From Blasia pusilla (taxonomy: Eukaryota): 64,000 bases of DNA. Each line of letters starts with the position of its first letter. Within the stretch, counting starts at the first letter, position 1. Position numbers and translations under genes: made by a program. Positions 22,139-61,702 of the stretch are shown piece by piece. Below the pieces are notes generated by a model, which ran no database searches, was not told where the DNA came from, and saw only the letters and a program-made list of their open reading frames with translations. The DNA lies in NCBI GenBank assembly GCA_050084515.1, contig CM114271.1, positions 25,358,001 to 25,422,000 of the forward strand, written 5' to 3'.

Positions 22139-22700
22139 GGCAGAGATGCCCGCTAGACCCGTGATAGAGTGTGCCATGGCTTCTCCTGGTGTTGTATTGC
22201 TGGATAACCGGGGAGAGGTATTCCAGTTGTTGATTCCAAGAGATAGAGTTCTTAGACCACAACGCGTCTTGTTGGATTCAGGAGCGCAACCCTAATGCTG
22301 GGGAAAGAGGCATTCATAGGATAGGGCTTGACGAGAGCCGATGTGGAGCATTGTCCACTCCGGGTACAGACATCCTTGGGTGGAGCAAATACCACAAAGT
22401 GTATCACCCGATAGGAAGTTGTGGTGAGGATTCGTCCGGGACATCCTACAGATGAGTCCGTGGTGCAAGCCAAGGCGATAGTGACCGATGTAGAGTCCTA
22501 CGACGTCTTGGTTGGTGGAGCACTATTGTACCCGATGAGGTTTTCTCTAGATTAATAGGAGGAGTCAACATCCTACAAACCAAGATGGCAGTCAAGTGAT
22601 GGGCGCCTTAGCTCATTCCTCGTTTGATTCATCGGTGGAGTGATCAAGCGACGGCCAGGAGAGATTGCGACCTAAGCAGCATTTAGCAACGCCATCATTC
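22139..22700 (+). pseudogene. Degenerate retropepsin (aspartic protease) of element 1
   Basis: RVLLDSGAQP motif at ~22262-22292, matching VLLDSGAQPLML in elements 2 and 3. Confidence 0.75.
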
Positions 22701-22818
22701 GGCCTAGTGATTTGATTGAGGGACATGTCCATGGAGAGGACACTCCCATTCTTGACATTTCTAAGAAGAGGAGTGTCATGGTAGCCGCATCAGTCCGTGG
22801 AGGAGAGGTGGCACCGTT

Positions 22819-24211: not shown

Positions 24212-25150
24212 AGGAGATACTAGGTAGGTTTGGATTCCGACTTTTTCTGTGACATGGATGACAGGAAGGCAACTAACGATGGCCCCACATGAGCACCCGA
24301 CCTTGTTTCTCTTAGCGTCCTAGAGATGTATGTCGTGGTAGGTAGAGATAGATGGCTATTTGGAGTTAGAGGGACTTAACCACTAGCTAGGGGGGCGATT
24401 GGAGATATTTGGCACTTCTCGCCTCTGTGTTTGGATGCCATGAGTTAGCATGGGATCGTGCATGTTTGTGTGTGTGTTCGGTGACAACGATGTCTGTTGT
24501 GTAGCGATGTGTATACGCACGACAACTGTCACATCTTTTAGGATAGTTCGGTGAGATCTAGTAGAGCGCCTTCGTGAGTAGTGGAGGATAGGCTCTGTAG
24601 GTTGAGGATGACCTGCTGAGGCCTCGGGAAACCTGAGAGAGCAGGTTTCCTCTTCGTTTCGGCTCATTTGGAGCCATATTGAGGAACTTACTATTTTAGG
24701 TAAGTACCATTTTGAGTATATGATTGACTTTCTATTTTTGGTAATTGGCCCTTGACCTCCTACATCAGGTCAAGAGCCAAGGAGGTGACTTGGGAGAATA
24801 GGTCACCATGGAGAGAGCTTGGGTGAGGGGAGGGGTATACCTCAAGGAGAGAGAGCTTGAGAGTTCATTCTCTCTTTGTTGAACCTCTTGGCATGAGGCG
24901 GCGGAGCTATGGTCCCTTGCCTTGTGAGTGTAACCCATGCCTCTCATTAGGAGAGTGGGTTTGGTTTGACATGAGAGAGAGTGCATACCTTTGAGAGCTA
25001 TGGTGGGAGATGGTGTAGAGAGAGATTGGATCTTACTTTATTGGAGATATTTTGGTACTTCTCGCCTTTGAGTTTGGATGCAATGAGTAAGCATGGGATT
25101 GTGCGTGTTTGTGTGTGTGTTCGATGATAGCGATGTGTATGCGCACGACA

Positions 25151-35466: not shown

Positions 35467-36412
35467 GCATACACATCGCTGCACAACATACATCGTTGTC
35501 ACCGAACACACACACAAACACGCACGATCCCATCCTAACTCATGGCATCCAAACAACGAGACAAGAAGTACTAAAATATCTCCAATAAAATAAGATCCAA
35601 TCTCTCTCACAACACCATAGTTCTCACATGTGTGCACTCTCACATATCTCTCTCAATGTCAAACTAAAGCCACTCTCCTAATGAGAGGCTTGGGTTACAC
35701 ACATAAGGCAAGCAAGACCATAGGTCCACTGCCTCATGGCAAGAGATTCAACAAAGAGAGAATGAGCTCTCAAGCTCTCTCTCCTTGAGGTATATCCCTC
35801 CTCTCTCCCAAGCTCTCTCCATGGTAACCTATGCTCCCAAGTCACCTCCTTGGCTCTTGACTTGATGTAGGAGGTCAAGGACTACTTACCAAAAATAGAA
35901 AGTAGATCATATACTCAAAATGGTACTTATCTAAAATAGTAAGTTCCTCAATATGGCTCCAAATGAGCCAAAACAAAGGGGAAACCTACTCTCTCAAGTT
36001 TCCCGGGGCCTCAACAGGTCATCCTTGACCTACTGAGTCTGTCGTACACTACTTACGAAGCGCTCTACTAGATCTCACCGATCTGTCCTAAAAGACGTGA
36101 CAATTATCGTGCGCATACACATCACTACACAACATACATCGTTGTCACGGAACACACACACAAACACGCATGATTCCATGCTAACTCATGACATCCAAAA
36201 AATGAGACAAGAAGTACTAAAATATCTCCAATCGCCCCCCTAGCAGGTGGTTAGGTCCCTCTAACTACAGATAGGCATCTATCCCTACCTACCATGACAT
36301 ATATCTCTCGAACGCTAAGAGCAAGAAGGTCCGGTGCTCATGTGGCCCCATCGTTAGTCACCTTCTTGTTATCCATATCACAGACACAAGTCGGAATGTA
36401 GAACTACCTATT

Positions 36413-37790
36413 CTATGTACATCTGGGACACATCCATCGTCTCTAAAGAACCCTAGTGAGAGGTGGCGTCAAACATGCCATATGCCATCCTCTCGAACAC
36501 CCATCACAGACTAGCATAGTGGCTATATCATGGGCGGAACCACACAACATACACCGCAAGCTTGCAGGAACTATTGCTAAGCTTGGATCAACTGTATCGT
36601 CAATGTTCAGAAGATGACATGGCGCACTGTTACGCACACTGTCCTTCCAAACCATATCATCGCTTCCCTCCAATAAGAGAACACCGAATGGCAAAACCTC
36701 ACGCACTCTCAAGATGGTGCGCCATGCAGTCACATCCAACATCGTGGATGCCGTCTGCTGCAAGTAGACATAGTCTCCCTGATGAAACCTCAAGATAGTA
36801 GGTCGATAACCACCTCCCCAAATAGTCGCATACCTCAACGTATCCCGATGTTGTGCAATCGCCAAGTTCTCAAACGCCATGGGCATCACTCTCCAAAACA
36901 AGTCAGCCTCTGATAACATGCTCGCATCCATACATCAGGGTCATCAAGGTTCAACACCTCACCAGTATCTCGACAAATGGCCGTGTGTAAATCTGGCTCT
37001 CGGACATAAAGCGACAAGTATGGTGAGAAAGACGCTAAGGATGCCTACCTGCTGAATCTGTATTCCATCGCCAACCACGGCAACTAAAGGTCCTAATCTC
37101 TTAGATGACCTCTCTACAAGCAATACTTGCATAGTCCTCTCTTCACCGTCTTCACACCCCCCCCTCTGCTAGTCCATCCGTCTCAGGATGATCTCGCGAA
37201 GTAATGCGGTGGTCGATTAGTGCCTGATCACACAAGGCCTGAAACTCCCCACACAACTTTGTACCCTGGTCTGTCAACACCTCCGCTGGTGTGCCGTAAT
37301 GACTTAGCACTCGATTTAGGAAGGCATACGCTACTCCCTCACTCGCTTTGTCAGGCAATGCAACCAACTCTATCCACTTCGAGAAGTGCTCGACCATCAC
37401 CAACACATAACGACTATGGCGCTCTGTCAAAGGCAAAGGTCGTGCAAAATCCAAACTCCATCTGTAACCTAAACCCATGATCGGAAGTGGATGCAACTGT
37501 GGAGTTGGAACATTGAACGATGCTCAGACTTGATCACACACCATGCATCTGGCAACAAACTGCTAAACATCAATCTGCATGCCTCGCCACCAATACTGAA
37601 TCTAGAGCAAGTTGTACGTCCGCTTCACTCCAAAACGACCCAACTCCTCGTGGGCATGACGCACCAAACGTGCTCACTACACGCACGCTACCATCCTCCC
37701 ACAACTCATAACGCATATCTGCCCTCCCACTGGAACCATCTGGCTTGTTATAGGATCTGATCCCGCTCTCTAGCACCCATTGTGCTCGCG
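36413..37790 (-). pseudogene. Integrase + PHD finger of element 2
   Basis: WSLDFARPL...VMVEHFSKW...VLTDQG...DHPETDGLAE, then CMLCGS...LVCDGCSRGWHMACLTPPL..*RRWMCPRCT*. Confidence 0.9.
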
Positions 37791-38020
37791 ATGTTGCCAA
37801 TACACAAGTACTCCAAGACCACTCCATCATCGTGAATGTCTCAGCCACCTGTCATCTCCTCACCGACCTTTGGATCTAAGGACTCTCCATTAGACCTCGC
37901 CATCAAAGTCTCAACAATCTGGCTCTCCATAGCTAACAAGCCCAAATAGGCTGACGCATGCCATCTTGGCACCAACTCCTCATCACTCTCACCATGCCAA
38001 CGAGCTCCAGTCGCATCTCG

Positions 38021-39406
38021 CTAACTCGGGCATGGGTTACGACTCAAACCATCTGCATCCTGGTTGAGCATCCCTGGTCTATGCACCACTTGGAAGTCAT
38101 ACTCCTGCAACAAAAGAGCCCACCTTGCAAGCTTCCCTGTAAGCTTGTCGGACTCCATCAACCACTTAAGTGGCTGATATTCAGTAATGATGGTAAAGGG
38201 ATTCCCGAATAGATAACATCTAAAATGTGCGACAACCCACACTGTAGCCAAGCACTCACCCTCATACGAGCTATACTTCGCCTCTGCAGCGTTGTTCGAG
38301 CAACTAGCGTAAGCCACCACGAACTCTCTACCATCATCGTCATGCTAGGTGAGCATGGCTCCAAGCCCCAACATGCTCTAATCGGTATGCAAGTGGAAAG
38401 TACGCCCCTTGATCGGTCTCTTCAATATGGGCGCGGACGTCAATTTTTCCTTGAGCATCTGAAATGCTCTTTCTTGCTCATCCTCCCACTGCCACTCCTG
38501 ATCCATCTTGGTCATCAAGGTTAGCGGCTTCACAATTGAACTAAAACCCTTGACGTACCGTCGATAGAAGTTCACAATCCCATGAATGCATGAATTCGAA
38601 TCACATCAATAGGGCGCGGAATGCGTGAAATAGCCTCTACCTTTGTTTATTGCACACCAAGGCCCCCAGGGTATATTGTATGATCAAAGTACTCAATCTG
38701 GTCATAGAAGAACTTGCACTTGCCTAGATGTAGCTTCAGTCCATGTAATTGCAATCGTCAAAAAACCTCCTCTAAATGTCCCTCATGCTCCTCAACTGTG
38801 GCACTAAAGACTACGATATCATCAATATAATACCTAGAAAAATCCAGACCTACCAAGATCCTATCCATGACCCTCTGAAACTCAGCCAAGGCGCTCTTTA
38901 ATCCAAATGGTAAGAACCGGCACTAGTACAAACAATCCTTCCCGTGAGGATCGATGTCCCAAAATGCCGTCTTCTGCCTGTCCTCCAATCTGATAGGCAG
39001 TTGATGGTATTCGGCTTGCAAATCCAATGAACTGAAGACCTTTGCATGCCCGATCGCATCAAATATCTCCTTAGGAGTGGGCATGGCATACCTATCAAAC
39101 TTTGTCTGTCGATTGATAGGTCGATAATCTCCACACATCCGCCTATCCGTCCAATTGCCATGCACATCCTTCTTGACGCGCATGACAATGGCAGATGCAT
39201 ACTCTCCATGCAAAATCTCCACTAGTCCTGCTCCAACCAAGTCCTGGCTTCTACTTTGAATCAGAGCCCTCTCCATATCACTATACCTATAGGGTCATCG
39301 AAGATCAGCGTGTCACTCTACAACTCAATGCGGATCCCTGGACCCTTCAACATACCCAAATCATGCATACTAAATGCAAAACAACTCCTATAACTCCTAA
39401 GGAGCT
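38021..39406 (-). pseudogene. Reverse transcriptase + RNase H of element 2
   Basis: RRMCGDYRPINRQT, FSSLDL..YHQL, YIDDIVVFS (~38810-38830), NFYRRYVKGFS, LHTD, YSSYEGECLA, LARWALLLQEYDF, DADGLSR. Confidence 0.92.
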
Positions 39407-40137
39407 TGTCGTGCGAATCGTTGACATACCATACTCACATACATACATAACATAGACGAGAGCATCCACAAACATAACTGTACCACAACTGAAATCCGTG
39501 AAAGACCTACTGTCATAAAACACATATAGAATCACGCACAATCGAGCCAAACCCACTCCACGATGGGAGAATCTAGGTCGAAGCTTGCGGGGAAGACCAT
39601 AGCCAAGAGCTCTACTCACTACCAAGGCTAACTCCCAATGCAACAGGCTCAACTCAAAGAACTGACTGTTCTTTGGATGCACTCCACACTATATCCTCCA
39701 ACCGAAGAGCGGGCCCTACTGGGAAAGTTACCCCAACTAAGTAACCCCCAACCCTATGTATGAAACCACATCTCTACCTAGCCACTACGGTCCTACATAA
39801 GGTATGGCCTCTACTAGCACACTATATTCTACGACATAATCCGTATGGTTACGACAACTATCATGCGAATCCACCTTGTCATATAATATACATCGCTGAC
39901 ATACCATACTCACATACATACATAACATAGACGAGAGCATCCACAAACATAACTATACCACAACTCGCCCCCCTAACTGGCGGTTAGATCCCTCTAACTC
40001 CCAGGTAGCCCTATACATCTACTACGTGCTATACACCTTCGTGGGTGCACGAATCAAAAGGCCGGGTGCTACGTTGCCCCATTGTTAGTCGCACATCTGT
40101 AATCCATATCATGCAAAGATCAAGTCATCTACCTCTC

Positions 40138-41561
40138 CTAAATACATTGAGGACAAACCCACCTTCTAGTAGGAACAACATCCATACGTGGAGTCAAACA
40201 TATCATGTGCCAACCCCTAGAACACTGATCACACACCAACATACGGGCTGCGTTACCAGCAGACCCACACAACATGCACCTCAAGCTAGCACGTATCATG
40301 GCTAAGCTTGGGTCAACAGTACCATCCACATTTGGAAGATGACATGGCGCACAATTACGCACATGGTCCTTCCAAACAACTCCATCACGATCCTTCAACA
40401 TGAGAACTCCAGAAGCTAACACCTCGCGCACTCGTAAAATAGTGCGGCTTGCCGTCACATCCAACGTTGTCGGTGCAATCTGCTGCAAATAGACATAGTC
40501 CCCCACATGGAACCTACGAATCGATGGTCGATAACGTTCATCCCGAAAGGTTGCATACCGCAACGTATCTCTATGTTGAGCAATGGCAAGATTCTCAAAG
40601 GCTGTTGGCATAACTCTCCGAAAGAGCTCTGCCCGCTGAGAACATATCCTCATCCACATCTCTGGGTCATCAAGGTTCACCACCTCACTAGACTCCCGAC
40701 GAATTGCTGCTGGCAAGTGTGGATCTTGGCCGTATAATAGAAAATAAGGTGAGAAGGAAGCCAAAGATGCTTGGCGACTGAACCTATATCCCATGGCTAA
40801 CCATGGCAACTGAATATCCCTGTCTCCAAGGTGCCCCTTCTGTAAGCCATACTTGCACAATGCCCTCTTCACCGTCTGAACCACACGCTCAGCCAAACCA
40901 TCCGCCTCTGGATGATCTTGAGACGTGGTCCGATGATCAATCAACGCCTTGTCACACAAGACCTGAAACTCACCCTGAAACTCTGTACCCTGGTCGGTTT
41001 GCACTTCAGATGATGCACCAAAATGACTAAGCACTCTATGAAGAAACGCGTACGCCGTACCCTCACTTGCCTTGTCAGGTAATGCCACCAACTCAATCCA
41101 CTTGGAGAAGTGCTCCATCATCACCAACACATATCGATATGTCGTACAGTCAACGGTAACGGTCCCGCAAAGTCCACACTCCAACGGTAACCCAACCCCA
41201 TAATACGCAAGGGGTGTAACTGTGGTGTAGGGGCATTGAATGATGCCCTCACCCGGTCACAAACCATACAACGTGACACCAACTGCTGCACTGAGTATGC
41301 ATGCCACGCCACCAATATCGACCAAGGAGTAAGCTATACGTACGCTTTACCCCCAAATTGCCCCAACTCCTCATGGGCATGTCGCACAATGCGCTCTCTC
41401 TGAGCCAAATGCGGCACTACTCGTACTCTACCATCCTCCCACACACGGAGAATATGTGTTCCCTCCAATCGATACCTCTTAGCACGTTGAAGAACACGAT
41501 CTCGCTCCTTGGCACTCACTATGCCTGGCACCCTACTGGTCCGTATGAACTCCAACACCAA
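40138..41561 (-). pseudogene. Integrase + PHD finger of element 3
   Basis: 348-aa ORF with DDE core (MMEHFSKW...TDQGTEF...ADGLAERVVQTVK) ending CMLCGS...LVCDQCSRGWHMICLTP...WVCPQC. Upstream HHCC fragments. Confidence 0.92.
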
Positions 41562-41627
41562 CGCATCATCATGAATATCACGCTGATCCGCACGCCATCT
41601 CCAACCTTAGGATCTCAAGGTGGCCAT

Positions 41628-42880
41628 CTACCCTCGACTAGAGTAAGATGTCATGTGGTCCTCCATACTAGAGTCCACCCCTAACCAACATAAAAAGGCG
41701 GATGCATGCCAACCTGGCACCATCTCCTCATCAACCTCGCCATGCCATCTAACCCCAGTTGCATCCTCTTGGCTAGTATATGGGTTCCTACTCAACCCAT
41801 CAGCATTAAGGTTGGCAACTCCAAATCTATGTACCACATGGAAGTCATACTCCTGTAAGATAAGAGCCCACCGTGCAAGCTTCCCTATAAGCTTGTCGGA
41901 CTCCATCAACCACTTGAGCGGCTGGTGATGAGTAACAAGGGTAAACTGTGTGCCAAACAAGTAACACCTAAAGTGTGCCACAACCCACACTATTGCCAAG
42001 CACTCTCCCTCATATGAACTATAGGGCGACTCCGCTGCATTATTCGAACGACTTGCATAGGCCACCACAAACTCCATGTGCTCATCATCATGTTGTGTCA
42101 TACCGCTCCAAGTCCCAACCTACTCCAATCAGTGTGTAACTGAAATTGGCGCCCTCTAATAGGTCTCCTCTAGATAGGCGCCGCCACCAACTGGGCCTTA
42201 AGCTCCACAAAAGCTCTCTCTTGATCATCTCCCCTGTGCCACTCTTGATCTGATTTCAGCAATTGGTTCAAAGGCTTTGCCATAGCACTAAATCCCTTCA
42301 CATACCTCCGATAGTAGTTCGCCAATCCCATGAATGCCCGAACTCTACTCACATCTACCGGACGCGGAAAAAGTGCAATAGCCTCCACCTTTGCTTGCTG
42401 AACTCCCAAACCACCTGGATAGATCACATGACCCAAGTACTCAATATCCTCATGGAAGAACTTACACTTTCCTGGAATGCAAACGTAGACCATGAGCTTT
42501 CAACCGCTCAAACACCATCTGCAAATGTATGTGATGCTCCTCCACCGTGTTACTGAACACCAAGATATCATCAATGTAACACCGAACAAAATCCAACCTT
42601 GCTAGGATCCTGTCCATCACTCTCTGAAATTTGGCAGGTGCATTCTTCAACCCAAAGGGTAAGAATTTCCACTCGTACAAACAATCCTTGCCATGAGAGT
42701 GGACACCCCAAAATGTTGTCTTGGCCTTGTTACTCTCCCAAATTGGCAATTGATAGTATCCAGCCCGAAGATCCAAAGTACTGAAAATCTTTGTCTGTCC
42801 CACCACATCAAAGATCTCCTCAGGTGTAGGCATGGCATAGCTATCGGCCTTGGTTTTCCGATTGATAGGACGGTAATCTT
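41628..42880 (-). pseudogene. RT (N-terminally deleted) + RNase H of element 3
   Basis: DYRPINRKT...LDLRAGYYQL...LPFGLKNAP...CYIDDILVFS; ANYYRRYVKGFS; YSSYEGECLA...ARWALILQEYDF...NADGLSR. Confidence 0.92.
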
Positions 42881-42899
42881 CCACGATAATAGTCCGAAG

Positions 42900-43880
42900 T
42901 CGACGCTGATCGGCCATACCAAGACTCAAAATCCAAGTCAAACAATTCAAGTCCATGGCCTGATCCAACACAACGTCATGAAGCCTCAGAAATGGAAGCA
43001 ACCGTTGTCACACCAGTAGCAAATCCCATCGCACGCTCTATCTCATCAGCATTAGGCTCCACCAACTGTCGCACATGAGAATCCCATACAAGCCCAGGAC
43101 CACCTTCCCTGTATGCATGTGACGAGGGAAAACTCACAAATATGGGTAGTGCCATCCTAGGTTGGCCCACACGATTCACCACTGCCATGGGTGACCGATC
43201 AATAACCCTCACTACCTGAGAAAGTCGCCTAGTATCCAAGATACTATCCACTGTAAGGCAAGGATCCCGCTGCACTGCATCATATGCTCGACGTAGAACC
43301 TCCCTAGGCAACAAGTTTGTCCACCACAAGCGTGGACGATGTGCACGAGAGCCAACTCGCGCTGCATCCAACAACACCGCTGGTCCAATCCAAGACCGCA
43401 CCTCATGAACACTCGCCATCATCCGGGTCTGAGTGTCACCCAACAATGGAAAATTCTCCAGAATGTAAGCTAGAGTATGTGCCTGATGAACCTGAAGATG
43501 TCGTAACACCCGTAACATCTCCCAAAACAATCGAGACCTAGGGTCGTGTAATCCCTCACCACGACCACCACGTGTATGACCCTGACATGGCCATCCAGCA
43601 ATCACCAAATCCACAGGACCAACCCTCTCAAGGTCCTGCGCCCCCAACAATACAATGTGTGACGGCAAAGCACGTTGGTACCCACGAATAGCTGATGGCG
43701 GCAACAACTCAAGATATCTCCGCATCAACTGACCAATATGTCAGGATGAGACTCTCTGGGCCGTCTCATCTCGCTCCACATACACGTACCTCCGCACAGG
43801 AATACCGGCCTGCAACACTGCAGCCAAACCAGTGCTAATCCCACCAAAGAGATCTAACACACAAATGCCCTCCGACGGAT
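42900..43880 (-). pseudogene. DNMT3-like C5 cytosine methyltransferase domain within pol of element 3
   Basis: Motif I VLDLFGGISTG, II YVERD, IV DLVIAGWPCQG, V DPRSRLFWE, VI YILENFP, VIII DAARVGSRAHRPRLWWTNL, IX EIERAMGF, X VLDQAMDLNCL. At least one stop (43741) and one frame break near motif X. Confidence 0.93.
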
Positions 43881-44034
43881 ACTGCCATATAATGGGTATA
43901 GTATCCAAAGGGGATAACCCAACTGGACCAAAAGTAGGAGTCCGCCGTGGGGCCTCCTCTTCCTCGTGAGGTATAACAGCCTCACACCAAGCCTCTTGCA
44001 CTAGGCGATCAGCCTCTTGCGGTAGTGCACCGCC

Positions 44035-44820
44035 TCAACTCCAAAGTGGCACATCCAATGATGAGGATGCCACTGCTGCAAAAATAGGGACCTCCTCTAC
44101 CTCTTCATGCACAGGAGAATCCATAGCAGCAACATTACCCTCCAAAAAGTCTCTTGGCCAAGTGACTACTCCACTAAAACCAGCCAGAGATGCTAACACT
44201 GTTGGGGAAGACCCTCTTGGTCGAGCCCCATAAATAAATCTCACAGTAACTTGGCTCATATGTCCATCCCCGGACTGCCAACCAGGTCTATAAGACGCTG
44301 TCTCAGTCCAATAATCCATGTGAAAACCCATCCGGTACAATATTGCTCCTCTAACTAGTATATCATATTACTCGCATGATGTGACCACTGCACGTACTCC
44401 CAACCGAGATCTATCAGTCGCATGATCTGGTCTCAACAGTACAGAAAACTTCTGCCGTGTCATGAATTGAGACCTATCATTGGCTCCTCCAAGTGATGTT
44501 TGAATCTGGAATGGGCAAGGCTCAAGCTCTGACCTCCGAATACCCAAACCAATACATGTCGCCTTTCCCAACATCAAAGGTTGGGCACCAGAGTCTAACA
44601 AGACTCTATATGGTCTATACACCTGTCTTGTAGGACTTACCAATCGGAATATCCCATTCCGGTTGTCCAACATACATACACCAGGTGTAAGCCTCTCGCG
44701 ATCAATGGCTGGTCGGGTTGGTAATGCATCCATCTTCACCGCTGCTGCCTGCCAAGTAGCACTGATACTTAATGCTACACTTGACATAGAGGGTCGCTCC
44801 ACCGCAACACCCTCATCCAT
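44035..44820 (-). pseudogene. Aspartic protease of element 3
   Basis: RVLLDSGAQPLMLG...CPFQIQTSLGG. Confidence 0.85.
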
Positions 44821-45282
44821 CTCAGCACGTGCAGCAGTAACACCCCCACGTTCTTACAACGTGGCTGCTAACTGAAATACAGGAGCTAAGTTAACTCCTA
44901 AAGCCATTAGTTCCGTGGCCAAAAACAATGGGGATCCCAACACTGAAGTTGCCATCCGCAATACTGCATTGGATGCTGCAGCCGTGTCTACTACACGCGA
45001 TGTAGATGCCTCAGTCCCCAATGTCGGCTCAATAGGCTGCGTAGGAACCATGGATGGAGTCCTAAGCACCTCAGACAACAAGAATGACTGGGAAAGCCTA
45101 GCCTGCCTCCTAGCCTCATCCCTCTGTGGGTCCAACTCCACCGTAGCACCACGTGGCTCTGACGCTCGAGTGGCTCCTCTCGTAACTGCAGCCGATGCCT
45201 CAACTTGTGTTGCACTCGCCATATAAGAGAGATCATCCCCTCCATAAGAGATGGAAGCCCCTGCTCCCGAATCTGATCTATG

Positions 45283-46519
45283 CTAGATACCAGCCATAGT
45301 AGCCAACTTCTCCTCCAACTGCTCAATCTTGGCAGCCATAGCTGACTCTGTCATAGTGGTAGGGGTGGCCACCGTAGGCTCTCCAACCACCGGTCCACCT
45401 CTACCACCTCTACCACCTCTACCACCTCGGCCAATGCTCTCGAGGATGACTTGGTCTCCCGCAATGATCACACTAAAATGGGGCCGACTGAGGCCCATCC
45501 TCCAAAGTCCGTCTCCCATCCTCTTGGGGATAAAACTTCATAACATGATCACCTCCACATGTCCAACATGACTGTCCTTGCTACGGGGCAGCAAATGAAG
45601 GCAATGGTCTCTGCGCAAGTGTCCCTCTAGGACCTGACTGAGGTCGTGTGTACCCCCCACGACTCCCACTACTACTACCACCACCACTACTACAAGATTG
45701 TGAGGTGGGCTGCTGAACATGAGAAGTAGTAGTTGTATCCCTAGTGAATGCGGATGTCACCACTCTCTCCTTCACCATGTTAAGCTCAATCTTCTCAGAT
45801 AGAGCAAACACATGGGTCAATGTGGGTGAATCATCACTCATAAGAGTAGCATCACGTACCCTGCGGCGCAACTCTCTGTCCAAGATCCCATACCAAAACT
45901 GGATTGCCTAAGCCTGAGTCACACCCTAGGTAATTGATCAAGCGTCGCATACGAGTGTATGCCTCACGAAGACTCTCACCAGTCTTTCGCTCAAATTCCT
46001 GAAGACTCCTCAACTTCTCTATCTTCACTCCCTGATAGTTCTTCTTCAACCTCTTGAAGAACTCTGCAATCGGGCTGAACGATGGTCGGGCACTAGTACC
46101 TCCACTAGTACCCCCATTGGTACCTCCATGGGTACCTCCACTCGTACTCCCACTCCGGCTCGCACTCGTACCACTCAACGTCGGGCTGGTTAGCATAGTA
46201 GGAGCACTACTACCAATACCACCATGGGTGATAGACACATAGCCTGGAGACCAATATTGTCTCCACGCCTCAATCTCAGCAACATGATCCTTCCTAAACT
46301 CATGGTAATCATCCATGGGTGGTCCCTCCAAGTGCTAAAACAACCCCTTCCAAGCCAAGAAGGGTTCCGCAACATCTGCATATCACACCATGTATCAAAC
46401 TCCTGCATGAAATCCTCCAACTCAATGGTGCCCACTGCACTCGAGTATCGTCGTGGGCCCTTCATGGTCCCATATATTCTGTCCATGTCCCAAATCAATG
46501 GAGCTGCAACGTTTAACAA
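45283..46519 (-). pseudogene. gag of element 3
   Basis: AVGTIELEDFMQEFDTWCD, MDDYHEF, GVKIEKLRSLQEFERKTGESLREAYTRMRRLI (retrotransposon gag-like) and an RGG-rich nucleocapsid region. Confidence 0.8.
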
Positions 46520-48899
46520 CGTAGAAGACTCGGTGTTTGGAACACCCTCGTCCTTCTATTCATCAACTGTCGGAAGTGGAAAAGGTAGCCGATACCTCAA
46601 TCCACTCTGTGTAAAACCACCACTGTCCGCACCACGGTCCCCAACCTGACCACCAGACAGCTCCGTGATGACCAACGCCGATGCCGCACCACCACCAAAT
46701 TACCTCCACTAAGTAACCCAGTGACGTGGATGTCGTTGTACTATTCTAGCTCTACTAGCTATAGGTGTAGGCAACCTAACCTGTCATCACCACAAGAAGC
46801 CTCCCACGGTCTACTGGTCATCACTCCAGCCTCATTACTGCTAGCACACAGGAATAACACTACTTTGGAAATCAGCATCAACCCTAACAATGGGCGTGCA
46901 AGCAAGAAGCAACGATGGAGGGGATCCAAACACAAGAAGTCCAACGACAATCCTCCAATCGCAAATGGAAATCAAGGTAACACAATCCACCAAACGTGGC
47001 ATCCCCTGAATCCACAAAACCCACCACACAATTCTAACGCAATAGCTACTCCGCCGCGGGTCGATGACGCGCTAGTCGAACTTGGAGCACCATAAAATAT
47101 CACCTGTATGGAGAGGCTACACCGTACTATGTGCTAGAGGTCCATCAACCAAAAACCTGAGATGCATAAAGTGCCTAACACCTCTCCGAAGAGCACCAAA
47201 TGATCTACACCAATGTGTACACTGGCATAGTTAAGAACTCAGCAGTTAAGCGTCTTCCAAGCAGAATAGCCCAAAGATGGGTGACCAGTTATGCAACACT
47301 CAAATCACAAATCCTGCAGAAATTGCCTCACACCCAAGCAAGCAAGCAAGCTGCTTGCTTGCTTGCTTGCTTGCTTGCTCCTTGCTTCTTACTCCGCCTC
47401 TTTCTCCCACTCGCCCCGAGCTACCACGAGTTGCCTCGAAGCCTCAAAACGCCGAGAAATGCTTGAGACATGCCCCTATCGCCCGCTTCGCCATGCTTCG
47501 CTATGGAGAGAGGCCCAACCAGGGTAGGCATCTCCAACAATGAACGAGTCACCAACCAACCAGCCCCTCCAATCCGTTGTTGACCTTGAGCTAGTCCGCG
47601 AAATTTCGATCAGCAATTACTCCACAAATCCTCTACCAAAATTGAATTTTTTTCAACCAGAATTCAATTGACCACCATTGCTATCTCTCCACAAAAAATC
47701 AGCTACAACCAAGCTCTGCACTCCGAGCTAAAAATCAGACAAACTTGTTGTCCATACACCTCAAGAATCGCAAATCCGACAGCAATTCCGCCCAGTTTCA
47801 TGCACGTAGAAATCTGCAACGCTCCACACACTCAAGCAGATAGCTTCACATGAGATCACAATACAAGTAGCAATAGGAACCTCTCACCCAATCTGGATGA
47901 ACTTCAACACAGCTTCCGCACTCCAAGCTCTCCACATCAGAAAACCGTCGAACACGAACCAGAATCTTCAATCCTTGATAACTTCCAACTCCCTTGACGA
48001 AATCTGGCAATCTAAAGCGCGTTGGAAAGCTCTCACCAAGGCGCTTCTTTCCCAACCAACCACGCAGCAGATTCCTACCTCCAACATAGGCCACATGCCA
48101 TGAACATCCACGGATGAGTACACAATCAGCCCTAACCAGATCCTACTGATCCACAATCGAAGCTACCATGGATCTACTCTAGTTCTTTGAGTGAAATCCG
48201 TGAAAGACCTACTGTCATAAAACACATATAGAATCACATACAATCGAGCCAAAACCCACTCCACGATGGGAGAATCTAGGTCAAAGCTTGCGGGAAACAC
48301 CATAGCTAAGAGCTCTACTCACTACCAAGGCTAACTCCCAACGCAACACGCTCAACTCAAAGAACTGACTATTCTTTGGATGCACTCCATACTATATCCT
48401 CCAACCTAAGAGCGTGCCCTAATGGGAAAGTCACCCCAACTGAGTAACCTCCAACCTTATGTATGAAACCGCATCTCTACCTATCCACTACGGTCCTACA
48501 TAAGGTATGACCTCTACTAGCACACTATACTCTACGACATTATTCGTATGGTCATGACAAACTAGTGTATCCGGCTCCGCTCTCCTCCTGTCAACTTAGG
48601 GCCCATATCTAGCTCCCAAGTCTCCATCGTGACTACGGTAGGACTCTCCGGCGCGGGTATTGGTGGTTGCTATGGTGCAACCCCGTCTCGGACAATAGAA
48701 CTCTCATCTCCACGTGCAATATCCAGAACCACACTCGATGTTGTGGCTATCATTTCCTGGTGTACCTGCAAAACATCCCAAGAAGTCCAAGGGTGTCTCT
48801 CCCAATCATCCTTGGTGTGTTGATCTCCTCGGGTGTCGCCCCAAGCCACTGCCTCAACCATCTCGATAGGCGTGGGGCTCACCAACGCAATAGTTGCAA

Positions 48900-49885
48900 T
48901 CTGTCGTATCTTCACATGACGTTGCTCAGCTACTCCTAAGCTGAAAATCCATGTCAACCAGTTCAGGTCCATCGCCTGACCCAAGACATGACATCGTGAT
49001 GCCTCCGATAGTGATGGTACTTTCGTCACTCCTGTGGGGAATCCCATCGCTCGCTCTCCCTCATTGGTGTTGGGCTCCACCAACCTCTGTACCTGGTCAT
49101 CCCAAACCAAGCTAAGTATGGCGTCTTTGAATCCATAGGAAGCGGGAAAACTCACCAATGTGGGAAAGGCGGCTTGTGGCATGCCAATCCTGTTGACCAC
49201 AGTCAACGGCGGTCAATCATTGTGCCTCACTGCTTGTGATTGACGGCGCGGATCTAATATAGAATCCACCAACAAATCAAAGGGACGCTCCACTCTTGCA
49301 TAAGCCCTCCGCAATACCTCATGTGGTAACAAGTTGGTCCACCAAAGACGCGGGCGATGTGCTTGTGAACCCACACTCGCCGCATCTACCAACACTGCAG
49401 GCCAATCCATCCGCGCACCTCATGTACACTCGTCACCACGCGAGACCTCAAATCTCCCAAAATTGGCACATTCTCCAAAATGTATGTTGGAGAACGAGAC
49501 TAATGATCTTGTAAATGTCAAAAGATCCGCATCATCTCCCAAAACAATCGGGACGGAGTGTCAGCTAACCTGCTACCTCATCCAGCACTTGATTGGCCCT
49601 GACACGGCCAACTAGCAATGACCAAGTCTATGGTCCCTACCCGCTCCAAGTCTTGCATCCCAAACAATGAAATGTCCCTCGATAGGGAACTCTGGTAACC
49701 CTGAATGGCGGACGCAAACAACAAGTCGAGAAAATGGAGGTGTAACAACGCCATATGGTGAAGTGAAGCGCGCCTTGCAACATCATCAATCTCCACATAC
49801 AGGTACTGCTGCACGTGCACTCCAGCGTGCAAAACAGCAGCTAACCCAGTGTTGATCCCTCCAAAGAGATCCAACACCCAAATAC
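48900..49885 (-). pseudogene. DNMT3-like C5 cytosine methyltransferase domain within pol of element 2
   Basis: IWVLDLFGGINTG, YVEIDD, DLVIASWPCQG, YILENVP (~49468-49488), DAASVGSQAHRPRLWWTNL, ERAMGFPTGVT, CHVLGQAMDLNWL. Confidence 0.93.
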
Positions 49886-50229
49886 CCTTCTCAGGGATGC
49901 ACCACGCAATCGGGGTGGTATCCAAAGGGATCATAGCAGCACTCCTGCCTACCTGGGGTTCCTCTAACCCGTCACACTCTAGTGCAAATTTCTCGCTCCA
50001 CACGGTCTGCATGTGCTTAGTGGCTAAGCATCGGAGCTCCTCAGTCGAGCCCCAAAGCGACACCTCGCCTCCACAAACTACCATGACACTCCTCTCCATA
50101 GAAATGTCAAGAACGGAAGTATCCTCTGCGTGGACGTATCCCTCAATTAAATCACTAGGCCAAGTGATGGCACTGCTAAATGCTGCTAAGGTTGTGTCAT
50201 GGTAGCTATGGAAAATCCCATCGGGTATA

Positions 50230-50691
50230 ACACTGCTCCACCAACCAAGACGTCGTAGGACTCTACATCAGTCACTATCGCCTTGGCTCGCACCACAGAC
50301 TCATCTGTAGGATGTCTGAGCAAATCCTCACCACGACCTCCTGTCCGGTGATATACTGTGTGGTACTCGCTCTACCCAAGGATGTCTGTATCTGGAATGG
50401 ACAACGCTCCACATCGGCTCTCGTCAGGCCCAATCCTCTTAATGACGCTTTCTCCAACATCAGGGGTTGCGCTCCTGAATCCAACAAGACGCGCTGCGGA
50501 CTAAAAGCTCTACCTCCGAGACTCACCAATTGGAAGACCTCTCCCTTGTTATCCAACAACACAATACCAAGAGAAGCCATTGCACGCTCTATCCCGGGTC
50601 TAGCGGGCATCTTTACCATCCTTGCAGGCGCAACCTGCCATGGATCTGACGTGGACGGGCCGAGCATCCGCTCCAAGGGCAGGTCCATCAC
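50230..50691 (-). pseudogene. Aspartic protease of element 2
   Basis: QRVLLDSGAQPLML...CPFQIQTSLG. Confidence 0.85.
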
Positions 50692-50928
50692 CTCCTATGC
50701 AATCCCCTTTGAACGTGATGCAAAAACTCCAACTCCACGCTCACATAGCGTAGCGGCCAGCCGAAAAGCCTCGGCGGGCGTACTCCCAACGTCATAACAT
50801 CGGAAGCAAAAAAATAAAGGAGTGCGGTACACAACGGTGGCCGCCCCCAACAACGTGCTCGATACATGCCGATCCTGAGCATCAGCAATAGGAGTCATCG
50901 CACTCGCTTCTCCCATTGCCCTTCGTGC

Positions 50929-52539
50929 CTACACATCAACAACATCACTAACTCTCCAGGAACTCTGATTAGGACCTATTGATGGGGTCCTCATCGCCTC
51001 GGACAACGTGAAAGAGTGAGAAAGCCTAGTTTGTTTCCTGGCTTCCCCTCGTTGTGGATCCAACTCTGCGGTTGCTCCACGCATCACAACTATGGCTGCC
51101 TCCATCTTGGCAACCCCGCACATCCAACCAGGATCTTCCATATCTCTGGCTGCACCATATGATGTTGATGCCACGGATCCGGCATCGGGTAATCTCAATG
51201 CCATAGCGGCAATCTGCTCCTATAGATGATGTATGTGAGCAGCCATCCTAGCCTCACTCCCGGAATCTCCCTCGATGCGTCTAGGTGGTGGGACTCTACC
51301 TCCTCCATGGGCAGGTCCACCACTCTATCGGGAAACTCCAGCTCCTCGTCCTCCAACGAGACCACATGGTGCACAATCTCTAGGCCCACCCGAACCGGCT
51401 AGTTGCTTTGGTGCCCTCTCTAGCCCTCGGTCCGAACGTAACTCAGGATGTCAACTGAAATACCTAGCGCGTGTATGACCATACCTCTGACAATAGTCAC
51501 ACTGATAACCTCTTGGTGCAGCACCATCTCCTCCTCCATGCTGAGGCATAAGTCCATGACCCTGACGATTGTAATCGCGCTGATGATGGGCTTCACCCCA
51601 TCACCAACAAGTAATAGTAGGCGGCTGCTACAAAGCCGCATATGAAGGCGCATGTCTCTGTGGCACGGCCTCCCGGTATCCTCCCTAAGCTCAGAGTCCA
51701 CGTTGTTGCACAAGTGGTGCAGACAATCGTGACTGCTCTGACCTAGAACCCATGGTGGCTACACTCTCCTCCGCCATGTTGCGCTCAATGTTCTCGGCGG
51801 TCCTAAAAACATCTCTCAACGTAGGAGAGGTGTTCATAAGAAGCACCCCCTCCCGCACCCGTGTCCGTAGGATCCGGTCCAGCATCGCGTACCATGACTT
51901 GATAGCCTGAGCCTCTATCACCTCCTGAGTGAAGCAAGTGTAAGCCTCACACAAACTCTCACCCGGGCGCCTCAAGAAGTCATGGATGCTCCACAACTTC
52001 TCCATCCGTACCCCCTGGTAGCTCGCCCTCAACTCAGCAAAGAACTCAACTACGGGGTTGAACCTGGCACGAACCCGACTAGATGGTGCAACTGCTCCAA
52101 TACGATTGAACCCTCCTAAAATATCACAAGTGGAAGAGGAAGTAGCCTCTCATGACTCCTCCTCCTCATGTGGGAATAGCTCCGTCCATGATACATAGTG
52201 TGGGTCGTAGTATAGTCGCCATGCCTCAATCTCCAAGGCATATCTGTGGGAGAACTCATGGTAATTGTCCATGAGTGCCCTCTCTAAATGCTAGAACATA
52301 CCGTTCCATGCTGTAAATGGGTTGAACTCTCTAGAGTTCCTAGCCCGCTATGAGTCACACCAACTCCTAAACTCCGCAATGAAGTCGTGTAGCTCTATGG
52401 TGCCTACAGCACCCGAGAACCTACGCGGTCCTCTACCCCGGTTGTCCATCTCGTGCGCCCAACTGGTAGGTGCACTCAATGTGTACGGTGGATCACTAAC
52501 ACACTCCTCTATACGCTCCCCCTCATCTGATGATGACAT
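50929..52539 (-). pseudogene. gag of element 2
   Basis: MSSSDEGE...FSGAVGTIELHDFIAEFRSWCD; YQGVRMEKLWSIHDFLRRPGESL. Colinear with element 1 gag. Confidence 0.8.
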
Positions 52540-55500
52540 GGAATGAGATCAAGGTGGTCTCTCACGTGAAGACCCTCAATCTACACTCTCTCACTAAGAT
52601 GTGTGTTGTGCGGCAACGAGCAACGTGGTGCAGAAAATCAACCCATCTATCGTCTCATCGACAAACCATCCTCAACTCTGAACATCCTAGACAGGTCTAT
52701 GTACGTCCCCTAAACCCATAAACCATAGATGCTCCTAGCATCAGCACAAAACCCAATATCCCAAATGACTTCCCAATATCTGAAAATTCCTCACACGTGC
52801 AGGGTAAGAGACCATAATGGGTAACTTGACAATAATATTGACGTTGCTCCTCGACAATTGCAAATCTCAACCCCAATTTGGTCGTGAAGATAACTCCTCC
52901 AATCAGCTAGTCGTACTCCTCGTGTACTGACGCTGCTTAAACCTCCTCGACATGCGGTGCAAGTCCAATGATCCGGTGCGGCATTGGCGGCACGGAACGA
53001 CTACAAACGGCACGACACTCGAGAATGGGGTGCGGGACTTAGCGGCATACCCTCCTCAATCAAAAATTCATACGCTCTACTCCTTAGTGAAGGAGCAGCT
53101 CCGCGATCGAGATGGTGCGATGCCGCCATGAGCGGCACGATGTGGCAATCCGCGGCGTGTTACGGCTACGGGCGTCACGGCACGGTACTCGATTGTCGTC
53201 GAGCAGCTACCAATTGCAACATAGAAACATGAAATGAAAACACCATAACCCAAGGCCACCATCACTGGTTGATGACGAAACTATGATGACGGTGACAGCC
53301 AAACCAAAGTACGTAGTGGCGGGGCAAGTCAGCAAATCAACGGTGGTCGTGGAAGACCCTCCACTCCGTAATGGCGGCAATGGCAACCAAAGGGTGGACA
53401 ACGGCCAAACGCAGCTCTGAGCAGCGCTAGGCGACGACAGCGGCCGACGATGGATGGTGGATGGTGGACGGTGGACCATTGACGGTGACGGTTGATGATA
53501 ATGGTGACGAAGGACCGTTGATGATGATTATGACGGCGACGGCCGCCGTCGCCGCTGTTGCTGGTTTAGGGTTTGAATAATTTAACCCTACTTCTGCCTA
53601 GCAATGGAAGTTTTGCAAGATGGACCATAACTTTTTGCTCGCAACTCCAAAATGCACATTTTTTGTTGCACACTATGCAAACCTTTAAGAGCTACAACAA
53701 CATCAAAAATATTTGGAATGGGATGTTCATGTAAAAACTCAATCCCTATCAAAAATTGGGCAGCGCTTCCGCGCGCCACTCTTCTACACAAAACATTGCC
53801 AAAGAAAACATCACAAGTAAGCGACTCTTGCTTTGGTGAGCACTCCCATGAACCGCTGAACGGGGAATACGATCCCCAACCTGCAAAACCAACGAGTGAC
53901 CAGCGAGCTCCCCCATGAAGCTCTCTCACTCACTCATTCTCTCTTAGTAAAATAAGATCCAATCTCTCTCACAACACCGTAGTTCTCACATGTGGGCACT
54001 CTCACATGTCTCTCTCAATGTCAAACCAAACCCACTCTCCTAGTAAGAGGCTTGGGTTACACACACAAGGCAAGCAAGACCATAGCTTCGCCGCCTCATG
54101 CCAAGAGGTTCAACAAAGAGAGACTGAGCTCTCTCAAGCTCTCTCTCCTTGAGGTATACCCCTCCTCTCTCCCAAGCTCTCTCCATGGTAACTTATGCTC
54201 CCAAGTGACCTCCTTGGCTCTTGACTTGATGTAGGAGGTCAAGGGTCACTTACCAAAAATAGAAAGTCGATCATATACTCAAAATGGTACTTACCTAAAA
54301 TAGTAAGTTCCTCAATATTTCTCCAAATGAGCCAAAACGAAGAGGAAACCCGTTTCCCGGGGCCTCAGTAGGTCATCCTTGACCTACTAAGTCTGTCCTA
54401 CTCACAAAGTGCTCTACTAGATCTCACCGATCTGTCCTAAAAGACGTGACAACCCTTTCCATAATAATTCACTCACTTTAATTAGATGGTGAAATAGCAA
54501 AATCTAATATACAAACAAACATATAATTAACTTTTGATTATTCACCTCGATTAGTAAGATATAAGCGGCCAATGGGATGCCCGCAACCATTTCTTTTTTG
54601 TATCCTATGAATCTATCTCTTTTTTGTTCAATGATAATATGAAGGAAAATCTATAAAAAGATATTCAAGGTTGCATGCGGACAAAGTCTGCATTTGCGGA
54701 CTTTTCCGTCCCGAGGAGGAACATGTCCGTGCGGGCCCGGATGCGCGCTCCATGAGCCCACGTTGCTCACGGACTGCACCTGGGACTACCCACACCAAGC
54801 ATTCCACCCTTGCTTGGCTAGTGCGCATCACGCTCGGCGCTTGTTTTTCAATCAAGCCCGTTTTTTTCACTTGCTAGGATCTGATTGTTGTGAGATTTTC
54901 TTCAGCAAGGTAGGTGCTCATGAAAGAAACTATGACTTTGGATCTCTACTAGATAGTGCACTAGGAATGAATCAATTGGCTATCTTAGAGTATGGACCAT
55001 AAGGATTAAAGATACGTCGTTCATATCATAAACAAGATCATGTTTAGGAAAAATTGTATCCTTTTGGTGAGGGAGACCAAGCTCCAAATCTATTTGATTA
55101 TTCAGTGGGTGAAGAAATAGATGTCAACATTGACCCGAAATCCATGGAGATGGAGATATTAGGACATAAAGTAAGGCATGTGTTTGCATTTGTTCAAGCA
55201 GAAGTGACTAATGGGGCGATTCCCCATGCAATAGTGCCGATTGTAACTTATGAGAGCAAGATTATCTATAAATCTACCCTTGTAAGTCAATTGTCTTGCA
55301 ATCCTTTCATGTCAAAGGACAAGCTTACTCGAATAGCCCAAAAGACATAGTACACTACTGGTAAGGGAAAGGAACGTGATCCTAATTTTCTAACTTGTAT
55401 GGTTGATGTTGGTAGTGATATCGCAATTTTGTTTGAATCTACAGTAGACGTTGGCCCTTCCACAAGAAAGGGACAATGTCTGCAAGTAAGTGATTGCTTT

Positions 55501-57081: not shown

Positions 57082-57228
<147 letters not shown>

Positions 57229-60740: not shown

Positions 60741-60743
60741 TGA

Positions 60744-61702
60744 AGAAGTCCAAGGGTGTCTCTCTTGATCATCCTTGGTGTGTTGATCTCCTCAGATCTC
60801 CTTCCTAGCCATTGCCTCAATGGTCCTGATAGGCATAGGGTTTACCACAAGAATCGATGTGATCGTCGAATCCTCAAACGATGCTGCTCAGCTATTCCTA
60901 AGGTGAAAATCCATGTCAAGCAGTTCAAGTCCATCACCTGATCCAAGACATGGCGTCGTGATGCCTCTGATAGTGACGGTATTGCCGTTACTCCTGTGGG
61001 GAATCCCATCGCTCGCTCTCGCTCATCGGTGTTGGGCTCTACCAACCTTTGTACCTAGTCATCCCAAACCAAGCCAAGAGCATCCTCCTTGAATGCATAG
61101 GAAGCAATAAAACTCACAAATGTGGGAAAGACCACCCGTGGCATGCCAATCCTGTTAACCACAATTAACGGCAGTCGATCATAGTGCCTCACTGCTTGTG
61201 ATTGACAACTTGAATCCAATATAGAATCCACCAACAAATGAGAGGGAATCTCCACTCTTGCATAAACCCTCCACAACACCTCATATGGCACCAAGTTGAT
61301 CCACCAAAGACGCGGGCGATGTGCTCGTGAACCCATACTCGCCGCATCCAACAAAACTGCCGCGCCGATCCATGAGCGCACCTGATGTGCACTCGTTACC
61401 ACACGGAACCTAAAATTTCCCAAAACCGGCACATTCTCTAGAATGTATGCTAGAGGATGAGACTGATGCTTTTGCAAGTGTCACAAGATCCGTATCATCT
61501 CCCAGAACAACCTGGACCGAGAGTGAGCTATTCCGCTACCCCGTCCAACACTCGATTGGCCCTGACATGGCCAACCAGCAATGACCAAGTCTATGGTCCC
61601 TACTCGCTCTAAGTCCGGTGCCCCCAACAATGAAATGTCCCTCGATAGGAAACTCTGGTAACCCTGAATGGCGGACGTAGACAACAAGTCAGGAAAACGG
61701 AG
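60744..61702 (-). pseudogene. Orphan fragment of the gypsy DNMT domain (motifs IV-X)
   Basis: DLVIAGWPCQG...RSRLFWEMIRIL, YILENVP, DAASMGSRAHRPRLWWINL, ERERAMGFPTGVT...RRHVLDQVMDLNCL. Colinear with 48781-49740; no motif I and no terminal repeats. Confidence 0.9.

Follow-up and report, generated by a model that had tools for sequence, protein, structure and literature searches.

DNMT3-like cytosine methyltransferase domains in decayed, nested Ty3/Gypsy retrotransposons of Blasia pusilla

The 64-kb window of Blasia pusilla DNA analyzed here (assembly GCA_050084515.1, contig CM114271.1, positions 25,358,001 to 25,422,000, numbered below from 1 to 64,000) contains four related Ty3/Gypsy retrotransposons, e1 on the plus strand and e2, e3, and e4 on the minus strand. 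They were mapped by self-comparison of the window with blastn and by tblastn with the element's own pieces, and they are almost certainly decayed, nested members of a streptophyte lineage that has captured a DNMT3-type C5 cytosine methyltransferase, of the kind represented by KnitGypsy-Dnmt3. The order within the family is long terminal repeat (LTR), gag, protease (PR), linker, DNMT, reverse transcriptase (RT), RNase H (RH), integrase (IN), PHD finger, and LTR. A streptophyte alga is already known from publication to have elements of this kind, and public protein sets contain many copies from Marchantia as hypothetical proteins. What is new here, part of which may already be on record, is the presence, abundance, and transcription of the family in a land plant, its division into two open reading frames (ORFs) by a TAG codon, its PHD finger, and a sister lineage in chlorophytes with another domain order. 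The fuller explanation, which adds stop codon read-through and a mechanism to this identity, is held with less assurance, as a probable account.

The DNMT3-like domain and the elements that carry it

In e2, a single minus-strand frame (44853-42976) leads from the LLDSGAQ protease signature through a linker into VLDLFGGISTG, GPVDLVIAGWPC, ENF, DAARVGSRAHRPRLWWTNL, and EIERAMGF. Protease, linker, and DNMT share this frame of 626 codons, which has three internal stops and a terminal stop, and motif X (LDQAMDLNCLTWI) lies in another frame at 42971-42882. The aspartic protease with its DSG motif occupies 44368-44853, as recognized from its translation and its alignment with the protease part of Marchantia proteins, and has no Pfam match at E ≤ 0.01. 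It is followed by the linker (44035-44367, in the frame of its neighbors, with stops at both bounds) and by the DNMT3-like domain with motifs I to X (42882-44034, with one internal stop). A sequence-only reading of this DNA had described a full set of methyltransferase motifs between protease and RT, entered in frame from the linker behind the protease, and both features are present as described, with motif X frame-shifted. Recognition by the DNA_methylase profile is borne out as well, with a match of PF00145 to the ORF at 42976-43740 (E of 2.8e-7, 30.7 bits against a cutoff of 22); Protein Atlas gave no family more specific than DNA_methylase.

The motifs are shared by relatives. When e2, e3, and e4 were aligned using MAFFT with 14 relatives, liverwort and algal ones among them, motifs I (FGG), IV (PCQ), VI (ENV), VIII (HRxRxxWTN), IX (ERERAMGF), and X (LGQAMD) fell into common columns, and C150, E193, R233, and R235 are invariant in an alignment of 20 DNMT rows. 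The domain thus has motifs I to X in the unpermuted order of the DNMT3 type, with PC, ENV (ENF in e2), and RxR. Comparison with solved structures points the same way. A phmmer search of PDB by sequence placed DNMT3A (2e-11), DNMT3B, and DNMT3C at the top, followed by DRM (1e-5) and by HaeIII (6e-5) and then HhaI; the DRM match is restricted to chain residues 229-346, the C-terminal half, as is expected of a permuted relative. A profile built from 20 DNMT domains gave DNMT3A (1.4e-25), DNMT3C (1.6e-24), DNMT3B (7e-24), DRM (1e-15), HaeIII (9e-9), and DNMT2 (3e-6), and no DNMT1 or CMT chain under 0.01 in PDB. Finally, an AlphaFold2 model from the 20-row alignment (mean pLDDT of 86.5) was compared using Foldseek, and all 34 matches listed are DNMT3A, DNMT3B, or DNMT3C (best 4.9e-16, TM-score of 0.76 on the target). 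Judged by sequence, profile, and predicted fold, the domain is therefore nearer to DNMT3 than to DRM, DNMT1/CMT, DNMT2, or the bacterial enzymes among solved structures, in line with the sequence-only reading, which had called it DNMT3-like and unpermuted.

The catalytic domain of animal DNMT3A, DNMT3B, and DNMT3C is thus the best match in sequence, profile, and fold and has the same motif order, but identity is 19-23%, and the domain in the window is embedded in a transposon polyprotein. Pfam detected no PWWP or ADD reader domains with it, unlike animal DNMT3. These two domains are described as not conserved outside animals (Sarre et al. 2025, PMC12344493).

The Ty3/Gypsy assignment follows from the repeats and the order of the pol domains. 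Element e2 (39490-48560, 9,071 nucleotides [nt]) is inserted into e3 (35586-54452), and in both elements direct LTRs flank the coding region. The 3' LTR of e2 (39490-39857, 369 nt, ending TG..CA on the plus strand) and its 5' LTR (48192-48560), found by blastn self-match, are 93% alike over 369 nt, with a Kimura two-parameter distance (K2P) of 0.072. The LTRs of e3, of about 510 nt (3' LTR at 35586-36103, 5' LTR at 53948-54452, both by blastn), are 90% alike over 520 nt, with a K2P of 0.071. No blastn match at E ≤ 1e-10 joins the LTRs of e2 to those of e3 in the self-comparison, and both elements carry the DNMT, so that two families with different terminal repeats are present, as had been proposed from the sequence. 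As e2 is nested in e3, the proposed span, 42900-49885, crosses from one element into the other.

From Pfam and tblastn, the order is protease, RT, RNase H, and integrase, with integrase after RT as in Ty3/Gypsy elements, and the Pfam matches on the minus strand of e2 run DNA_methylase, RVT_1, RT_RNaseH, rve, and PHD. Behind the DNMT, e2 has an RT that lacks its N-terminal part (42170-42878, two frames, RVT_1 E of 7.5e-26), an RNase H (41628-42119, RT_RNaseH E of 4.7e-27), and an integrase with its zinc-binding part and rve core (40138-41606, two frames, tblastn and rve E of 3.7e-11). About 110 residues are missing between motif X and RT: residues 697-806 of Marchantia protein P0008 find no counterpart from 42919 to 42878. 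Upstream of the protease lies gag (45437-46486, three frames), matched by tblastn with residues 1-345 of P0003 and weakly by Retrotrans_gag (E of 0.0018, under the cutoff).

In e3, the DNMT3-like domain with the end of the linker occupies 48880-50192 (two frames, internal stops; tblastn with residues 773-1243 of P0003) and the protease 50275-50742 (tblastn; gag-asp_proteas E of 0.0091, under the cutoff), the protease-DNMT part as a whole being spread over three frames with stops. Its RT, RNase H, and integrase lie at 36419-39407 in several frames (tblastn), with 71% nt identity to 39965-42884 of e2. Element e4 (60743-61702) is a fragment of the e3 family that extends from before motif IV to motif X in one frame with two stops; it is 84% identical in nt to 48780-49739 of e3, the C-terminal two thirds of the e3 DNMT, and its DNMT is matched by tblastn over 60872-61699. 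Three stops interrupt the protease-DNMT part of e2, about 110 residues are lost before its RT, and the frame shifts several times within gag, RT, RNase H, and the integrase; this copy is dead, and e3 is more decayed, in agreement with the earlier view that the copies are pseudogenized.

The C-terminal 45 residues of the e2 integrase form a PHD finger (40144-40278, minus strand; PF00628 E of 8.7e-10 at residues 327-371 of the ORF at 40138-41256), a module common to both domain orders described below. The nearest solved PHD fingers are those of KMT2C/D, DPF2/3, CHD4, ATXR5, KDM5A/B, UHRF1, BHC80, and AIRE, most of which read the H3 tail unmodified at K4 or R2. Chromoviruses, which are also Gypsy elements, similarly bear a chromatin-reader module at the integrase C terminus, but theirs is a chromodomain. 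PHD fingers in retrotransposons are themselves already known, as stated in the part of PMC6673714 that cites Kapitonov and Jurka 2003 and Perez-Alegre 2005.

Reading frames, constraint, relatives, and transcription

Thirty related PR-DNMT proteins terminate 72-183 residues past motif X, and many RT-RH-IN-PHD proteins of about 1,040 residues begin just upstream of RT. Because of this pattern, the DNA of relatives was inspected in metagenome contigs. In locus L001, ORF1 (976-5085, 1,369 amino acids) and ORF2 (5086-8229, 1,047 amino acids) are in the same frame and separated by one TAG; by Pfam, ORF1 has a weak aspartic-protease match and DNA_methylase, and ORF2 has RT, RNase H, integrase, and PHD. 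Loci L002 and L003 have the same in-frame layout, and the six bases past the TAG in the three loci read CAG TTA, CAA TCA, and CAG TTA. No LTR pair was found in L001 or L003. In the window, the end of ORF1 and start of ORF2 are preserved in e3 (48561-48672, minus strand), where a TAG at 48672-48670 is followed by CAA CCA with the frame kept; ORF2 is then interrupted by the e2 LTR at 48560 and picks up again at about 39400. The corresponding junction of e2 was lost with the deletion between motif X and RT.

All four DNAs (e3 and the three metagenome loci) therefore combine UAG-CAR-YYA with a downstream ORF in the same frame, and in all four the DNMT is the end of ORF1 (Gag-PR-DNMT). The sequence-only reading had placed the domain inside pol between protease and RT; it does follow the protease and precede RT, but it closes ORF1, and the TAG stands before RT-RH-IN-PHD. 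According to Firth and Brierley 2012 (PMC3542737), UAG-CAR-YYA is the consensus of stops that are read through efficiently in plant viruses, tobacco mosaic virus among them, and read-through at the TAG appears rather likely from this context. As in type I read-through of plant viruses, exemplified by tobacco mosaic virus, one in-frame UAG with CAR-YYA would set an abundant upstream protein apart from a scarcer extended form, but here the stop follows protease and DNMT rather than lying within a replicase. Gammaretroviruses have a gag-UAG-pol layout, with a single in-frame UAG in common with these elements, but the stop of the present family stands past the protease and DNMT rather than past gag. 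Lying upstream of the TAG, the DNMT would be made with Gag and out of step with RT and integrase.

Constraint on the DNMT was estimated as dN/dS by NG86, with codon alignments of e2, e3, and e4 taken from protein-guided high-scoring pairs (HSPs). Between e2 and e3, the 235 codons of the main DNMT part give a ratio of 0.16 and a further 55 codons at its N terminus 0.24, compared with 0.11-0.14 for RT, 0.20 for RNase H, 0.18 for the protease, and 0.23 for the integrase, where overlapping HSPs are counted twice; between e2 and e4, the DNMT gives 0.15. The intact loci L001 and L003 give 0.145 for the DNMT (321 codons), 0.19 for the protease, and 0.32 for the ORF1 tail, and 0.04 for RT, 0.04 for RNase H, 0.03 for the integrase, and 0.06 for PHD. 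As dS is saturated throughout (1.1-2.0), these ratios say only that the DNMT is constrained about like the protease and less than RT and integrase. On this sequence comparison, the DNMT has been kept under purifying selection between families, with Ka/Ks below 0.2 for its main part.

The closest public protein is a hypothetical protein of Marchantia polymorpha with 72% identity over 99% of the query (E of 2.4e-161). A word-index search for longer proteins returned 43 matches, of which the best 20 are mostly M. polymorpha hypothetical proteins (62-74%) and include one from Calypogeia fissa (70%); Sphagnum fallax follows at 51%, and the other matches are metagenome proteins at 46-51% and 35-39% and one Haematococcus protein. 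Riccia sorocarpa reaches 73% in RT-RH. The closest relatives are thus hypothetical proteins of liverworts and a moss that had gone unremarked, and they point to a liverwort as the host. Of the cluster representatives found in an exhaustive search, 188 pass E ≤ 1e-30 and 730 pass E ≤ 1e-10, and the best 150 of the 2,878 matches of that search are all of transposon type.

Domain order was mapped by phmmer on 210 fetched proteins. The order of the window (PR-DNMT or DNMT-RT) is found in 50, RT-RH-DNMT-IN-PHD or pieces of it in 87, the DNMT only in 71, and no DNMT in 2. In an enlarged set, 51 proteins are of the window's type, 185 of the RT-RH-DNMT-IN-PHD type, and 73 have the DNMT only, so that the chlorophyte-type lineage outnumbers that of the window in public data (185 versus 51 fetched proteins). 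The named carriers of RT-RH-DNMT-IN-PHD are chlorophytes (Scenedesmus, Monoraphidium, Haematococcus, and Volvox). In JGI records, some proteins of this type (P0213-P0311 and others) carry the label "site-specific DNA-cytosine methylase" or "transposase InsO"; for one protein, the record is that of a bacterial metagenome-assembled genome.

Phylogeny separates the two orders. Both trees are quick maximum-likelihood trees from short searches, midpoint-rooted, with SH-aLRT support and without bootstrap. In the DNMT tree (76 rows), the two domain orders are split with a support of 99; e2 adjoins nine M. polymorpha rows (97), e3 and e4 pair (100), and e2, e3, and e4 form a 16-row clade with M. polymorpha and Calypogeia (100). 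The RT-RNase H tree (80 rows) shows the same split (92), with two Klebsormidium nitens proteins (P0337 and P0384), Closterium, Calypogeia, and Marchantia on the window's side. Two of the several Closterium proteins there have the DNMT upstream of RT; for the K. nitens RT proteins, the tree does not establish an origin from DNMT-bearing copies. The chlorophyte elements, such as the "pol" of Scenedesmus sp. PABB004, share the DNMT family (35-40% identity over the whole domain) and a PHD after the integrase and form the sister side in both trees, but their DNMT lies between RNase H and integrase. Our literature search found no paper on these chlorophyte elements.

Transcription was followed in three stranded RNA-seq runs with the same species label as the best DNA run, mapped to 39858-50300 at 90% likeness. 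Depth is 13-190 throughout the interior of e2 and 41-70x over the DNMT bins (42999-44045), and toward the integrase it reaches about five times its level near gag; in the DNMT bins of e3, it is 0.5-10. First mates fall about 16:1 on the plus strand, which in most stranded libraries means minus-strand RNA, the sense strand of the element. With 41 of 4,220 reads in run X22 (about 1%) at least 99% alike, the RNA derives from related copies and not from e2 itself. Among the differences listed between the reads and e2 are single-base length changes at 41138, 41635, 42099, and 42476, each at or near a frame change or stop of e2, and at 42879/42889, the deletion site of e2, the reads continue with other sequence. 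Relatives of e2 are thus transcribed in sense along the whole element, DNMT included. In the DNA run, 196,144 contig pieces aligned to the family, which is therefore very abundant.

Two joints recur in the RNA. One (40528/46400) skips 5,871 nt in 5-6 reads per run and has no GT..AG ends, and the other (40610/41636) skips 1,025 nt, with 30 other letters between, in 15-32 reads per run; both are probably from transcripts of deleted or rearranged family members.

Possible function, alternatives, and known systems

In the mechanism that we propose, most ribosomes would halt at the TAG and yield Gag-PR-DNMT, and a minority would read through and add RT-RH-IN-PHD, so that the DNMT would be made and packaged at the level of Gag. 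The protease would release the DNMT, which could then methylate de novo the new cDNA or the fresh insertion, and the PHD finger on the integrase may tether integration to chromatin with an unmodified H3 tail. New copies would arrive pre-marked like resident silent DNA. That methylation of the cDNA or of the element's own copy is the selected function is conceivable but doubtful, and is offered tentatively. The CpG observed/expected ratio is 0.61 for e2 and 0.69-0.76 for e3, and TpG+CpA stands at 1.25-1.3. Such values would be expected for methylated copies; the remainder of the window, at 0.78, is not much higher.

Several points weigh against parts of this account. For the elements themselves, no clear target-site duplication, primer-binding site, or polypurine tract was found at the ends of e2 and e3: their flanks have no clean 5-nt duplication, and no recognizable primer-binding site adjoins an LTR. 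Motif VI of e2 reads ENF instead of ENV, and the saturation of dS and the small share of reads close to e2 were given above. The leaky stop is not universal, since nine related proteins hold DNMT and RT in one ORF: three DNMT-RT-RH-IN proteins in the first set (P0069 and two cluster mates) and, in the second, four DNMT-RT-RH-IN and two DNMT-RT-RH-IN-PHD proteins, P0326, P0331, and P0334 among them. Four Marchantia models (P0008, P0009, P0013, and P0017) also continue from the DNMT into RT; judging from the models alone, we would attribute this to predicted introns running across the stop, and P0013 lacks the ORF1 tail found in P0003. In a published yeast assay, the Klebsormidium DNMT gave no methylation, a result that its authors call inconclusive (PMC5890265). 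Enzyme activity, read-through, and packaging are, for the present family, predictions.

The DNMT could instead act in trans on chromosomal DNA, with resident members of its family, competing elements, or loci of the host as targets, and serve copy-number control or interference rather than the marking of new cDNA. A position before a leaky stop predicts Gag-level amounts of enzyme, above the need of a particle-bound one, the abundance of the family offers many targets, and host-benefit and chromatin-setting roles are raised in PMC5890265. A free nuclear enzyme would, however, require a localization signal. The present data do not separate cis from trans action, and we regard the latter as unlikely.

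If the TAG were a true terminator, ORF2 would be expressed from a spliced or subgenomic RNA, by reinitiation, or from an internal start. Gene callers do begin ORF2 proteins at a Met a few codons past the stop (P0319 and P0317), the rise in RNA depth toward the integrase could reflect such an RNA, and some RNA joints skip internal parts, as from 40528 to 46400. Yet the joints observed lack GT..AG ends and none lands at the start of ORF2, which is in the same frame every time, and CAR-YYA is kept in all four DNAs though the encoded protein diverges (QL, QS, or QP). True termination is accordingly a distinctly less likely reading of the junction than read-through.

A third possibility is that the domain no longer methylates DNA. 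It would then either methylate RNA (the primer tRNA or the genomic RNA) or do no more than bind nucleic acid or, like DNMT3L, assist host DNMT3. Its place in the Gag-containing ORF would suit such roles, and PMC5890265 suggests RNA methylation for a DNMT in a LINE ORF1, besides reporting the inactivity in yeast. But all 20 rows share the catalytic Cys, the Glu of ENV, and RxR, unlike DNMT3L, and the match to DNMT2 is much weaker (3e-6 versus 1.4e-25), all of which makes this quite improbable. Although the region is a transposon nest, a chance juxtaposition of host DNMT3 gene pieces with dead transposons is extremely improbable, as the same order and frame recur in three window copies and 50 proteins elsewhere, introns are absent, and the DNMT and RT trees share one split; a host DNMT3 gene broken by insertions was rejected since the arrangement recurs.

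The captured-DNMT3 reading is closest to a published system, KnitGypsy-Dnmt3 of Klebsormidium nitens (de Mendoza et al. 2018, Nat Commun 9:1341, PMC5890265). These are Gypsy elements whose Pol ORF contains a Dnmt3 domain that is unpermuted and free of introns, with a Ka/Ks below 0.2 and repeats in a DIRS-like arrangement (Fig. 4c legend). The same paper sets the K. nitens copies in a tree together with cellular DNMT families. The elements of the window are likewise Gypsy LTR elements with an unpermuted DNMT3-like domain that lies in frame in the coding region without introns, at a similarly low Ka/Ks. They differ in their land-plant host, in having plain direct LTRs rather than DIRS-like repeats, and in the predicted position of the DNMT at the end of ORF1 before a leaky stop rather than in the Pol ORF. 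SymbioDIRS-Dnmt3 and SymbioLINE-Dnmt of Symbiodinium, treated in the same paper, are also retrotransposon-borne DNMTs, and in SymbioLINE-Dnmt the DNMT is in an ORF upstream of the RT ORF, as in the window family; one is a DIRS element with a tyrosine recombinase and the other a LINE, however, in another host kingdom and by independent capture. The sequence-only reading had cited prior reports of such enzymes, from dinoflagellates and Klebsormidium, correctly and had named none from a land plant. Our literature search likewise found no paper naming a liverwort or moss Gypsy-DNMT, though copies from bryophytes may appear in the supplementary data of PMC5890265 and PMC12344493. A 2026 preprint (10.64898/2026.05.21.726589) has just the wording "streptophytes (Gypsy-DNMT3)," Sarre et al. 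2025 (PMC12344493) cite the same source, and the Marchantia methylation papers searched treat host enzymes only.

What a transposon gains from carrying a silencing-type enzyme has been an open question since 2018. The hosts known from publications, Klebsormidium and a dinoflagellate symbiont, do not lend themselves easily to manipulation. Should such elements be abundant and transcribed in liverworts, the question could be addressed in a genetically tractable land plant, as close copies are annotated in M. polymorpha, and the layout predicts that DNMT output tracks Gag and not RT and integrase. Such copies will also inflate DNMT counts and "DNMT3" gene lists in bryophyte and green-algal annotation. 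As a broader and rather speculative generalization, bryophytes including M. polymorpha may carry a high-copy, transcribed lineage from streptophyte algae in which a leaky UAG gives Gag-level DNMT3, the enzyme being active and measurably affecting how new insertions or the host genome are methylated, with a chlorophyte sister lineage that moved the module elsewhere in pol.

Further features of the window

Element e1 (16714-25040, plus strand) is a copy of the e3 family, with 82-85% nt identity to both halves of e3. By tblastn, gag, protease, and linker are followed by integrase across an internal deletion near 22785-22808; as the linker joins directly to the integrase, e1 is without DNMT, RT, and RNase H, and it is a non-autonomous element derived by deletion from the e3 family. 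The two LTRs presumed to be its own are only about 80% alike (K2P of 0.22), so that e1 may be recombinant. Beside it, a further LTR copy or piece of the e3 family at 15928-16562 has the orientation of the e3 LTR, the reverse of that of the LTRs of e1. At e3, a 120-nt repeat adjoins the LTR (35467-35586 versus 36113-36232), with an LTR piece at 36105-36233; the extra e3-family LTR pieces suggest that further LTRs, nested or solo, are present. About 80 nt (39408-39489), which separate the e2 LTR match from the point where e3 ORF2 resumes, match the protein of neither element.

The sense strand of the family has more G than C and more T than A. For e1, e2, and e3, the GC skew ranges from +0.19 to +0.25, and at third codon positions of the intact L001 it is +0.24 to +0.28, with an AT skew of -0.23 to -0.26. 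The pattern resembles a strand-specific mutational bias common to the family (e1, e2, e3, L001, and L003).

The window also holds simple and tandem repeats. Directly after the 3' end of e1 begins an AT-rich tandem array (25152-26813) in which a 180-nt unit is repeated 9.3 times, with 76% matches and a CpG observed/expected ratio of 0.21. A 195-nt tandem duplication, 95% alike, lies at 13491-13884, and a (GA)69 microsatellite at 57087-57224.

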